Shown here: positions 1 to 4,478 of the stretch, in pieces
Layout: each line of letters opens with the position of its first letter
Numbering within the stretch: position 1 is the first letter of the stretch
IMG/VR virus record: IMGVR_UViG_2681813227_000017
Reading direction: 5' to 3' (one strand)
DNA: 4,478 nucleotides
DNA from: a virus
Taxonomy: Duplodnaviria > Heunggongvirae > Uroviricota > Caudoviricetes
Position numbers and translations under genes: made by a program
Notes under the pieces: model-generated
Databases searched by the model: none
Seen by the model: only the letters and a program-made list of their open reading frames with translations
Told to the model about the DNA's origin: nothing

Positions 1-65
1 TCTGACTAACCTGTATTTCAAAATCAGGGAGGACCGCCGTAAGACGGCGCGGGGAGACTAAAGCG

Positions 66-1631: not shown

Positions 1632-1725
1632 GCAGAATATTTTGCTGAAAAATGCGGTTTGCTCACACGGACGGATAACACGAAATCCTGCGAACTGACA
1701 AAAACTAAGTGAATAAAAGTAAAAA

Positions 1726-1760
1726 CCCCGTTTGTTGGCTGCAAGCGGGGTTTTGTGTTT
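1726..1760. terminator. Candidate rho-independent terminator hairpin, possibly bidirectional
   Basis: Stem CCCCGTTTG (1726-1734) pairs with CAAGCGGGG (1742-1750): 9 bp with one G-U pair and a 7-nt loop. TTTT follows at 1751-1754 on the + strand and AAAAA precedes at 1721-1725, giving a U-run on the other strand. It sits about 95 nt after the endolysin stop. Confidence 0.5.
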
Positions 1761-1829
1761 CCTGACTCTGGAAAAGTCAAAGGAGAAAGTGTGTTTGATT
1801 TTAGCAAACTGATTCGGGAGATTCGAGTG

Positions 1830-3020: not shown

Positions 3021-3206
3021 TTACTTAATTATGTAATTCATACCCGAACTCTCTGTTGACAGCCTTCTTCTGCAGGCTTCAATAACCCACGCTGAAAAGT
3101 TTCCTGAACCTTTCAGATCAAGAGCGATGTTAATTTGTTCAATCATCTGGTTTGGAAATCGGATGTTGCGGGTTGTTGTTCTGCGGGTTCTGTTCTTTGA
3201 TGACAT
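3021..3206 (-). CDS. Small ribbon-helix-helix-like DNA-binding protein, 61 aa; resembles DUF3950/YlcI-type proteins found upstream of terminase genes in E. coli prophages (from memory)
   Basis: Minus-strand ORF MSSKNRTRRTTTRNIRFPNQMIEQINIALDLKGSGNFSAWVIEACRRRL..., with a basic N-terminus, a short beta-strand-like segment (NIRFP) and two helices, as in Arc/MetJ/CopG folds. GGGGAA is about 5 nt upstream of the ATG (which is CAT at 3204-3206 on the + strand). It is convergent with the 2748-2888 peptide and divergent from cos/Nu1. Confidence 0.55.
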   Translation of the reverse strand: MSSKNRTRRTTTRNIRFPNQMIEQINIALDLKGSGNFSAWVIEACRRRLSTESSGMNYIIK

Positions 3207-3353
3207 AATGTTTCCCCATATTCAGTGTTGCTGATTTGTATTATCTGAAGTTGCTTTTACGTTAATTTGATGCAGATCAATTAATACGATACCTGCGTCA
3301 TAATTGATTATTTGACGTGGTTTGATGGCGTAGATGCACGTTGTGACATGTAG

Positions 3354-3370
3354 ATGATAATTATTATCAT
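3354..3370. promoter_or_regulatory. Perfect 17-bp palindrome ATGATAAT-T-ATTATCAT; its core TGATAATnATTATCA matches the 7-1-7 Fur-box pattern. Candidate Fur box or operator.
   Basis: Read directly from the sequence: 3355-3361 TGATAAT, centre T at 3362, 3363-3369 ATTATCA. About 150 bp upstream of the minus-strand RHH gene start and about 35 bp before cosN. Several TAATTGAT-like inverted copies also lie at 3262-3309. Confidence 0.3.
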
Positions 3371-3405
3371 TTTGCGGGTCCTTTCCGGCGATCCGAGCGG
3401 TTACG

Positions 3406-3417
3406 GGGCGGCGACCT
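3406..3417. other. cosN: cosN: the 12-nt cohesive-end sequence GGGCGGCGACCT of the lambda type (terminase nicking site)
   Basis: 3400-3450 reads GTTACG|GGGCGGCGACCTCGCGGGTTTTCGCTATTTATGAAAATTTTCCGG, which matches the lambda right-end/left-end junction as I recall it, base for base across about 45 nt after the nick. The flank before it (GGGTCCTTTCCGG, about 3374-3390) resembles the lambda right-end region where cosQ lies. Confidence 0.85.
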
Positions 3418-3443
3418 CGCGGGTTTTCGCTATTTATGAAAAT

Positions 3444-3562
3444 TTTCCGGGAACCATGTCCGGTTTCTCTGCAAGTTAACTACATAAAAAATATAAAAAC
3501 AGGTTTTCCGTGAACCGGACATGCGCAAAAAATAGACATATAAACCGGACATGACCGGTTTT
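3444..3562. promoter_or_regulatory. cosB: cosB-like terminase small-subunit binding region: three copies of a CATGTCCGGTT(T) element (candidate R3, R2, R1) with an A/T-rich spacer that may be an IHF site
   Basis: CATGTCCGGTTT at 3455-3466 in one orientation; its reverse complement GAACCGGACATG at 3512-3523 and AAACCGGACATG at 3542-3553. The one-inverted, two-direct orientation pattern mirrors lambda R3 versus R2/R1. An A/T-rich stretch at 3471-3500 sits between the first and second copies. Identity to lambda ends exactly where lambda R3 would begin. Confidence 0.6.
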
Positions 3563-3600
3563 GTGCTGATTGTGAGGTAAGAGTTTTTGCGAGGTGAGGA

Positions 3601-4110
3601 GTGGCTACGCAGACTGAAGTTGCCAGGCATTTGAGTCTGACCGATCGCCAGCTTCGCAGATTGCAGAAATTGCCGGGTGCTCCGGTCTCGAATAAGCGAG
3701 GACAACTGGATCTGGATGCCTGGCGTGATTTTTACATATCGTATCTGAGGAGAAGTAAAAACGATGTGCCTGATGGCGATAGCGAAGACGACTATGAAGA
3801 AAAGTTACTCATTGCCAGATGGAAGTTGATCGAAGAACAGGCAATCGCCCAGCAATTAAAAAATCAGGCGTCCGAAGGAAAGCTTATTGACACCGGATTC
3901 TGTATTTTTGCCCTCAGTAAGCTGGCAATGGCGTTATCCAGTACGCTTGATTCCATCCCTTTATCCATGCAGCGACAGTTTCTTGATTTAACACCGCGCC
4001 ATCTTGACCATCTGAAAACCCTTATTGCGAAGGGGGCAAATCAGTGTGCGCGGGCAGGGGATAAATTACCGGATTTACTCGATGAATATATCAGAGCAAC
4101 AACTGAATAA
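3601..4110 (+). CDS. nu1: Terminase small subunit (Nu1-like)
   Basis: 169 aa starting at GTG 3601, the first start after an in-frame TGA at 3595-3597; GAGG lies at 3590-3593. The C-terminal half matches lambda Nu1 by recall (FCIFALSKLA...LSMQRQF...RHLD...LPDLLDEYI versus lambda FCTFVLSRIA...LSVQRRF...RHVD...IPGLLSEYI). The N-terminus has the helix-turn-helix region in a divergent form. Confidence 0.92.
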   Translation: MATQTEVARHLSLTDRQLRRLQKLPGAPVSNKRGQLDLDAWRDFYISYLRRSKNDVPDGDSEDDYEEKLLIARWKLIEEQAIAQQLKNQASEGKLIDTGFCIFALSKLAMALSSTLDSIPLSMQRQFLDLTPRHLDHLKTLIAKGANQCARAGDKLPDLLDEYIRATTE

Positions 4111-4478
4111 TATGATGGCTGCCGTTTCGGTTGCGCTGCAGCCTCTGGTCAGGGTTGTACCGATGACGGCAGTTGAATGGGCTGATCAAAATTATTATCT
4201 GCCTAAAGAATCCTCATACGGTGACGGCGAATGGAAAACTCTGCCATTCCAGATCGCCATTATGAACTGTATGGGTAACGACCAGGTTCGCACGGTTAAC
4301 CTGATTAAATCTGCCCGTGTTGGCTATACAAAGATGTTGCTGGGGGTGGTCGGGTATTTTATTGAGCATAAATCCCGAAACAGTCTGCTTTTTCAGCCCA
4401 CGGATTCTGCCGCTGAAGATTTTATGAAGTCTCACGTGGAGGCGACGATTCGGAACGTGCCATGCCTGAAAGACCTTT
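4082..4478 (+). CDS. A: Terminase large subunit (gpA-like), N-terminal part; runs off the 3' end of the window
   Basis: My own translation from ATG 4082: MNISEQQLNNMMAAVSVALQPLVRVVPMTAVEWADQNYYLPKESSYGDGEWKTLPFQIAIMNCMGNDQVRTVNLIKSARVGYTKMLLGVVGYFIEHKSRNSLLFQPTDSAAEDFMKSHVEATIRNVPCLKDL. It matches the lambda gpA N-terminus (MNIS..., TAVEWAD.NYYLPKES, KSARVGYSKMLLGV, YFIEHK, PTD...FMK.HVE). It overlaps the Nu1 3' end by 29 nt in another frame, as in lambda. It is absent from the ORF track because it has no stop in the window. Confidence 0.92.
   Translation, partial: MNISEQQLNNMMAAVSVALQPLVRVVPMTAVEWADQNYYLPKESSYGDGEWKTLPFQIAIMNCMGNDQVRTVNLIKSARVGYTKMLLGVVGYFIEHKSRNSLLFQPTDSAAEDFMKSHVEATIRNVPCLKDL

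Follow-up and report, generated by a model that had tools for sequence, protein, structure and literature searches.

Packaging specificity sets which DNA a terminase loads into capsids. Among the lambda-like phages that package from a cohesive-end site (cos), only three specificities, those of lambda, 21 and N15, are documented (PMC4669245), and the discrimination between lambda and 21, which exceeds 1000-fold, depends on two base pairs of the R sites (PMC4669245). The arrangement of the R sites within cosB also varies: N15 has a simple cosB, with R3 and a remote rR2, while Monarch has a complex one (Feiss et al. 2015, PMC4669245); R2 is oriented opposite to R3 and R1 (Feiss et al., PMC4669245). 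Here we describe the cos site in a 4,478-nt stretch of the IMG/VR virus record IMGVR_UViG_2681813227_000017 (hereafter, the window), in which a lambda-type cosQ and cosN are joined to a different set of cosB repeats, next to a small terminase gene (terS) whose product, TerS, has a diverged DNA-binding domain. The mechanism itself is already known. Very probably, the small terminase binds to these repeats, and they confer a specificity different from that of lambda, 21 or N15.

A lambda-type cosN followed by other cosB repeats

The window covers a late-region junction in a lambdoid prophage, and the region between the DUF3950 gene and terS is the cos site of a lambda-like E. coli prophage. The packaging-termination element cosQ (GGGTCCT) lies at 3376-3382 on the plus strand (cos bp -29 to -23). 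It is identical to that of lambda, at the same distance from the nick, and cosQ is also present upstream of cosN in distant relatives. The 12-nt cohesive end in cosN, GGGCGGCGACCT, occupies 3406-3417 (+) and equals lambda bp 1-12; the flanking bases, with the conserved CG, are identical too, and cosQ is about 30 bp upstream of the predicted nick. By analogy, the nicks would fall at 3405/3406 on the top strand and 3417/3418 on the bottom strand. Window position 3406 corresponds to lambda bp 1, and cos coordinates are given on this scale.

Lambda and the window match base for base throughout cos bp 1-45, as far as TTTTCCGG at 3450; from bp 46, all similarity is gone. With 3300-3700 as the query, more than 100 lambda-like phage records matched 3300-3450 only. 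Phage 2H10 is near-identical up to 3450 (again TTTTCCGG) and has lambda-type R sites thereafter. Because the lambda match, these records and 2H10 all break after 3450, bp 45/46 is, on these alignments, a clean mosaic junction. An earlier, sequence-only reading of the window had described a lambda match of about 45 nt with divergence exactly at the edge of the first lambda R element. The length of the match was right, but the edge was not: bp 46, where the divergence begins, is some 4 bp short of lambda R3. Lambda (L002) carries TCCGGTT, the core of the repeats described below, once, at bp 41-47 (TTTTCCGGTTTAAGG), immediately to the left of lambda R3; the junction between the window and lambda (window 3446-3450) falls within this copy, after TTTTCCGG. 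This copy might allow weak cross-binding or might mark a past recombination point.

Beyond the junction, the exact sequence CATGTCCGGTT occurs at 3455-3465 (+), 3513-3523 (-) and 3543-3553 (-). The observed number of repeat matches was reached in 0 of 200 dinucleotide-preserving shuffles. A fourth copy, CATGACCGGTT(T), with one mismatch, lies at 3550-3561 (+), and the third and fourth copies overlap as a palindrome, AAACCGGACATGACCGGTTT (3542-3561). The count of three copies in the sequence-only reading is therefore correct for the exact copies but not for the whole set.

The first copy, CATGTCCGGTTT at 3455-3466 (+; cos bp 50-61), is the R3 equivalent; R3 of lambda and of phage 21 is at bp 50-65, with the lambda motif core at bp 53 (+). 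The second, CATGTCCGGTTC on the minus strand at 3512-3523 (cos bp 107-118; an exact 11-mer), is the R2 equivalent, for which the corresponding positions are 107-122 in phage 21 and, in lambda, a core at bp 114 (-). Because R2 is opposite to R3 and R1, the imperfect fourth copy, CATGACCGGTTT at 3550-3561 (cos bp 145-156; 1 mismatch), is the R1 equivalent by its position and its orientation, which is that of R3. Phage 21 has R1 at 150-165. The fourth copy also agrees with R1 of lambda (+, core bp 155) and with the R1 copies of two related loci, L166 (+, bp 147) and L164 (+, bp 137). The third exact copy, CATGTCCGGTTT on the minus strand at 3542-3553 (cos bp 137-148; an exact 11-mer), is thus an extra one and not the R1 counterpart for which it had been taken. 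It is confined to the E. coli lineage, with no counterpart in phage 21, lambda, L164 or L166. Phage 21 positions were taken from the annotation of record M81255. In summary of this layout, an R element within the R3 range of about bp 48-65 is accompanied by further copies in a +/-/+ order with R2 inverted, and we consider it likely from the sequence that the four CATG(T/A)CCGGTT elements are the TerS binding sites (R sequences) of a complex cosB.

The spacers are 71-72% A+T compared with 53% for the whole window, which bears out the A/T-rich spacer of the sequence-only reading. The R3-R2 spacer (71% A+T) has A/T tracts phased at about 9 bp (3487, 3496 and 3505). A match to the consensus of integration host factor (IHF), TATGAAAATTTTC at 3435-3447 (+; bp 30-42), resembles I2 and has the same sequence and position in lambda and 21; I2 is annotated in M81255. 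The candidate I1, TAACTACATAAAA at 3477-3489 (+; bp 72-84), is placed like I1 of phage 21 (72-86). It is a weak match, and an IHF consensus search of the window returned no convincing I1. A 5-bp hairpin at 3447-3463, which overlaps R3, was rejected as a terminator; it consists of CCGG at the I2 border pairing with CCGG of the repeat.

The TerS DNA-binding domain and its association with the repeats

The terS gene (3601-4110, +), a Nu1 homologue, has a GTG start and encodes 169 amino acids, beginning with MATQ, which is kept in homologues. The Pfam family Phage_Nu1 (PF07471; E = 4e-18) covers only amino acids 49-150. The C-terminal part is about 42-45% identical to lambda Nu1, for which the earlier description "lambda-like" was an overstatement. 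The end of terS is overlapped (4082-4110) by the 5′ part of terL, a gpA homologue (4082-4478, +), which is cut by the window end. The terL start, an ATG at 4082 (MNISEQQ..., cf. lambda MNISNSQ...), was read from the sequence. Pfam GpA_ATPase matches the fragment with E = 2e-19. Of the first 125 gpA residues read in frame from 4103, 122 were aligned with lambda gpA, at 63% identity. With its Phage_Nu1 core, and with terS adjoining and overlapping a gpA-type terL, TerS belongs to the Nu1 family. The extreme N-terminus of TerL, the TerS-binding end, has diverged from lambda gpA, and the proposal that the large subunit is lambda-compatible finds no support.

For the N-terminal 55 residues of TerS (3601-3765, +), BLAST, Pfam and PDB sequence searches gave no match to Nu1, and PDB sequence searches with the TerS protein and with the family profile gave nothing relevant. 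AlphaFold2 (predicted local distance difference test score, pLDDT, 84-88) placed helices at residues 4-10 and 15-22 (DRQLRRLQ), a beta wing at about 28-36 and a helix at 38-54. When compared with the Nu1 domains of lambda, 21 and N15 by hhalign, TerS residues 4-45 aligned with lambda Nu1 residues 5-50 (E = 1.2e-5). The best Foldseek matches were winged helix-turn-helix domains of MerR/excisionase type and small-terminase domains, together with entries 6hn7 and 6hlk from a study of RppC-TerS (template-modelling score, TM, 0.57-0.68). These models predict that the N-terminal 55 or so residues form a diverged winged helix-turn-helix DNA-binding domain with a MerR-like fold. Its predicted recognition helix, TDRQLRRLQK, differs at most positions from those of lambda (SIRTIQNWQE) and 21 (DPRTIERWQS).

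The repeats are more constrained than their surroundings. R3 did not vary in any of 41 distinct variants of this cosB from E. coli, and R2 had 2 variable columns with 4 of the 41 variants affected. The extra inverted copy was less constrained, with position 3544 changed in 10 of the 41. Altogether, variable columns made up 7 of 44 within the repeats, compared with 43 of 105 in cosB outside them (Fisher p = 0.004, a value that ignores phylogeny). The same plan is kept in L164 and L166, whose TerS proteins are 64% and 53% identical to that of the window (alignment A5) and whose spacers cannot be aligned with it. In L164, ATGTCCGGTT (+) at bp 51 is followed by an IHF-like site at bp 72 (TAACATATTGAAA, 1 mismatch, in the same place as the candidate I1), by AACCGGACAT (-) at bp 108 and, at about bp 137, by TTTCCGGAT (+), while L166 has CATTTCCGGTT (+), AAACCGGAAATG (-) and CACTTCCGGTT (+). 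The spacing between the R3 and R2 cores is 56 bp in all three. The cohesive end of L164 (800-811) is of the N15 type, GGGCGGCGTCCG, differing from lambda at bp 9 and 12. As it is found with the same R motif and a complex cosB, the cohesive-end variant and the cosB type assort independently.

The domain family (MATQxEVAxHLxLSDRQ...) is small, with 44 clusters in 1.84 billion representatives, and the domain was always N-terminal in TerS-sized proteins with one exception, P0024 (2465 amino acids, 19 domain matches), which was discarded as a tandem-repeat artefact. Searching a 5.8-billion-protein collection with the 70-residue domain returned E. coli fragments only, and a scan of genome contigs with a single TerS protein returned only four close loci. 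In Aeromonas phiARM81ld-like phages, Pseudomonas LPPA33-like phages and many metagenome phages, the motif (C)(A/G)TTTCCGGTT(CCGGTT) precedes the domain gene, about 55-65 bp from a lambda-like cosN with cosQ upstream; the TCCGGTT core is at bp 54-63 in these relatives from other genera.

The presence of the motif followed the recognition helix. In a count of distinct domain sequences, drawn from phages of Aeromonas and Pseudomonas and from metagenome phages, TCCGGTT stood just upstream of terS for 29 of 29 domains with a [DE][RK]Q helix but for only 2 of 9 with other helices (Fisher p ~3e-6); its control frequency was 1.6% of 200-nt windows. The repeats are conserved among phages with the same Nu1 type; a lack of such conservation is what the sequence-only reading had given as a refutation. 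In L169, whose helix is SARQVQRL, a tandem TGTCGTGTCG (390-420) of phage 21-like TGTCG units replaces TCCGGTT upstream of terS. L169 may represent yet another specificity.

A natural exchange was found in Escherichia albertii NBRC 107761 (locus L007). From about 3940 on, which covers the C-terminal third of TerS and terL, most 40-nt blocks of the window are shared with L007 at 90-100% identity, and two blocks are at 0.80-0.82. L007 is 85% identical at cosQ-cosN and unrelated over 3420-3780. In place of the window type, L007 (1201-1440) has an N15/Monarch-type domain and GGTTGTTGTT at bp 51 (+), 110 (-) and 188 (+). As judged by these alignments, L007 is a natural swap of the specificity cassette, with a Monarch-type complex cosB on the terminase backbone of the window. 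This swap and the left junction at bp 45/46 show that cosB and the DNA-binding domain are exchanged as one unit, with bounds at cos bp 45/46 on the left and at the TerS linker/core on the right.

The TCCGGTT class also has a simple form. In Aeromonas and Pseudomonas relatives and in L168, R3 has only a single partner, an inverted AACCGGA(A) that lies within terS, about 195-207 bp further downstream (L006, 251-261; L005 and L091-L129, at +172 of terS; L168, 1683-1690). Its codons are read as x-Pro-Glu, in an acidic linker that is not conserved otherwise, and it is similar to rR2 of N15. About half of the Pseudomonas-type metagenome loci are without it. The presence of complex and simple forms within one specificity class would imply repeated interconversion of cosB architectures.

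Proposed function, alternatives and distribution

The constraint on the repeats, their recurrence in independent lineages, their covariation with the recognition helix and the swap in L007 together tie the repeats to the TerS domain. They agree with the proposal of the sequence-only reading that a lambda-type cosQ/cosN is joined to another cosB repeat set and a diverged Nu1 DNA-binding domain. Because both the recognition helix and the R core differ from those of lambda, 21 and N15, this terminase/cos pair most likely has a packaging specificity of its own. We lean, by a modest margin, towards a broader view: that the TCCGGTT cosB and its matching TerS domain constitute a fourth functionally distinct specificity, which is old, occurs in Escherichia, Aeromonas and Pseudomonas, is passed as a cassette between terminase backbones that are otherwise near-identical and exists in complex and simple forms.

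In the mechanism that we propose, by analogy with lambda and 21, the winged helix-turn-helix domain of the adjacent TerS would bind the four R elements. TerS on R3 (bp 50-61) would position the gpA-type TerL to nick cosN. The inverted R2 would be reached 56 bp away across the A/T-rich, probably bent spacer, which may be IHF-assisted or intrinsically curved, and a dimer of the TerS domain could clamp R3 and R2. R1 and the extra inverted copy would be accessory, adding affinity.

Several observations weigh against this interpretation. The candidate I1 has 3 mismatches to the consensus YAANNNNTTGATW, compared with 2 in lambda and 1 in phage 21 at the same place. The third and fourth copies overlap by 4 bp and may not be occupied together, and the R motif is about 3 bp nearer cosN than in lambda and 21. 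The hhalign probability for the match to the Nu1 domains is only 81%, and the Foldseek E-values (0.3-1) are non-significant. The conservation and association tests ignore shared ancestry, and the cosN positions in the Pseudomonas and metagenome relatives were inferred by similarity. Finally, the motif is one core base from the R sites of phage 21, which makes cross-recognition possible.

This last point leads to the main alternative, in which the repeats are a slight variant of the 21-type R sites, and the terminase of 21 (or lambda) and that of the window recognise each other's cos. CATGTCCGGTTT matches R1/R2 of phage 21 (CATGTCGG(G/A)CCT) at 8-9 of 12 positions, R3, R2 and R1 are placed nearly as in 21, asymmetric cross-packaging has been documented for N15 and lambda (PMC4669245), and lambda itself has the one TCCGGTT at bp 41-47. 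We regard mutual recognition as unlikely: the likeness of the domain to 21 gp1 and lambda Nu1 was seen by hhalign only and not by BLAST or Pfam, the motif is shifted relative to cosN, and the recognition helix differs at most positions. Lambda and 21 discriminate on two base pairs (PMC4669245), and the helices here differ by much more. It is much less probable still that the repeats are operators of another protein, such as a regulator of late genes or of Nu1 expression or the upstream DUF3950 protein, with TerS binding elsewhere. The palindrome AAACCGGACATGACCGGTTT does look like an operator for a dimer and is just upstream of the terS ribosome-binding site, and a weak sigma-70-like match is found at 3343-3370. 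Against this, the motif follows the type of TerS domain and not the neighbouring genes, across genera that have no DUF3950 at this place; it keeps a fixed distance from cosN, as R3 does in lambda, 21 and N15; it was replaced together with the TerS domain in L007; and in the promoter and terminator scan of the window matches were at chance level only.

Could the cos site be a relic, unused in a defective prophage, with repeats kept only by recent common descent? Many carriers are defective, and the E. coli variants are 90-100% identical, which makes the conservation among them weak evidence. We hold this equally improbable, as the window has intact lysis genes, an intact terS and an intact start of terL, the same plan is present in lineages with unalignable spacers, and phages with this cos have been deposited. 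These are PhiR12_1 to PhiR12_5, whose host is recorded as E. coli K-12 MG1655 or E. coli C; they have the same cos and TerS, with 92.8% nucleotide and 93.5% amino-acid identity.

This cosB type was present in 1185 of 5426 complete E. coli genomes (~22%). One of its carriers is Sp4 of the O157:H7 strain Sakai (L170, 2501-2937), in which nu1 is cut after 276 nt by ISEc8. Sp4 DNA is reported to be packaged nonetheless, probably by the terminase of Sp14, whose putative cos is nearly identical (Asadulghani et al., PMC2669165). The putative cos of Sp4 and Sp14 was noticed in 2009, without dissection (PMC2669165). In Shigella flexneri SFBU1023 (L009) and E. coli ECMA0423 (L010), an IS3-family insertion (517-1809) removed cos and the domain, leaving TerS amino acids ~62-169, and these two loci were uninformative for the comparison. 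In the literature, subscription journals not being covered, we found no paper that describes this R motif, domain class or cosB type; a search by motif strings returned only unrelated primer sequences.

If our interpretation is true, a class present in about one-fifth of complete E. coli genomes, including prophages of enterohaemorrhagic E. coli, would aid the prediction of trans-packaging and mobilisation of defective prophages and islands, and of interference between co-resident prophages. In E. coli with several prophages, such as O157, it would determine by which terminase each of the co-resident, often defective, prophages can be packaged. The single-base differences in the R core among lambda, 21 and the TCCGGTT class, the swaps of domain and cosB and the complex and simple forms would also make up a natural series on how a winged helix-turn-helix reads its site.

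To the left of cos, the window carries a DUF1327 gene (66-1055), a phage lysozyme gene (1098-1631), Rz (1930-2397) with an embedded Rz1-like frame, and the DUF3950 gene (3021-3206, minus strand). An Rfam scan of the window gave no credible RNA. A match to the rimP leader at 1698-1787 (-) was rejected as sub-threshold, with 29.9 bits (E = 0.058) where the gathering score is 47. A GC-rich hairpin and T-run that follow the lysozyme gene overlap the match, which most likely reflects no more than a terminator.

Comparison with described cos systems

Phage-inducible chromosomal islands (PICIs) that use Rpp (Fillol-Salom 2019; Murialdo & Feiss 2022) likewise combine a lambda-type cosQ/cosN with a non-lambda cosB and a winged helix-turn-helix reader, a likeness judged on layout. 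They differ in having a single proposed R3 and in that Rpp redirects the TerS of the helper, whereas the element here is a complete prophage late region that brings terS and terL of its own and lacks rpp.

Like N15 and Monarch, the TCCGGTT class is split, with complex forms in the window, L164 and L166, and the simple R3 with an inverted copy, equivalent to the "R3 + rR2" design of N15, in phiARM81ld-like and LPPA33-like phages and L168. The R motif of N15 and Monarch, GGTTGTTGTT, and the sequence of their domain are different, and there is no rR2 in terS of the window. GGTTGTTGTT is absent from cosB of the window, in contrast to L007, and the helix is not of the N15 type. One GGTTGTTGTT decamer, at 3171-3180, falls within the DUF3950 gene (Thr-Thr-Thr, minus strand), some 235 bp to the left of cosN, where it is part of a weak hairpin from the terminator scan; it is probably coincidental.

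With lambda, the window shares cosQ, the 12-nt end and bp 1-45, an R element at bp 50-61, the +/-/+ order with R2 inverted, the A/T-rich R3-R2 spacer, a terS just downstream that overlaps terL, and a protein made of a winged helix-turn-helix and a Phage_Nu1 core. The R core is TGTCCGGTT here and TTTCCGTTC (TTTCCGTT) in lambda; CGTTTCCGGTT of the relatives resembles CGTTTCCGTT of lambda. Neither R sites of the form CGTTTCC(G/T)TTCT nor the helix SIRTIQNWQEQ, which define the lambda specificity, were found in the window. In addition, the match to I1 is weaker, an extra inverted copy overlaps R1, and cosB is shorter: terS starts at bp 196 rather than 191, but R1 is 8 bp nearer cosN. Identity is about 45% in the TerS core and about 63% in the N-terminal region of TerL.

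Phage 21, the classical alternative specificity, also has a lambda-type cosQ/cosN with another cosB and another recognition helix. Its R positions are almost superimposable on those of the window (50-65, 107-122 and 150-165), and no other known type has an R sequence as near to that of the window (CATGTCGG(G/A) compared with CATGTCCGG); the repeats are not unrelated to known R sites but one core base away from those of 21. R sites are of the form C(A/G)TGTCGG(T/A/G) in 21 and CGTTTCC(G/T)TT in lambda, and at the two positions that discriminate between them (bp 56 and 59 in their register) the window repeat has the G of 21 and the C of lambda. One core base differs from 21 (core TGTCGGT) in every copy, no C(A/G)TGTCGG site is present, the helix is not DPRTIERWQSQ, and the motif is about 3 bp nearer cosN. 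The domains cannot be aligned by BLAST, and there are four copies compared with three. On the same comparative evidence of conservation, covariation across genera and natural exchange, the relation of this cos site to that of lambda is, as the sequence-only reading proposed, comparable to that between lambda and phage 21.

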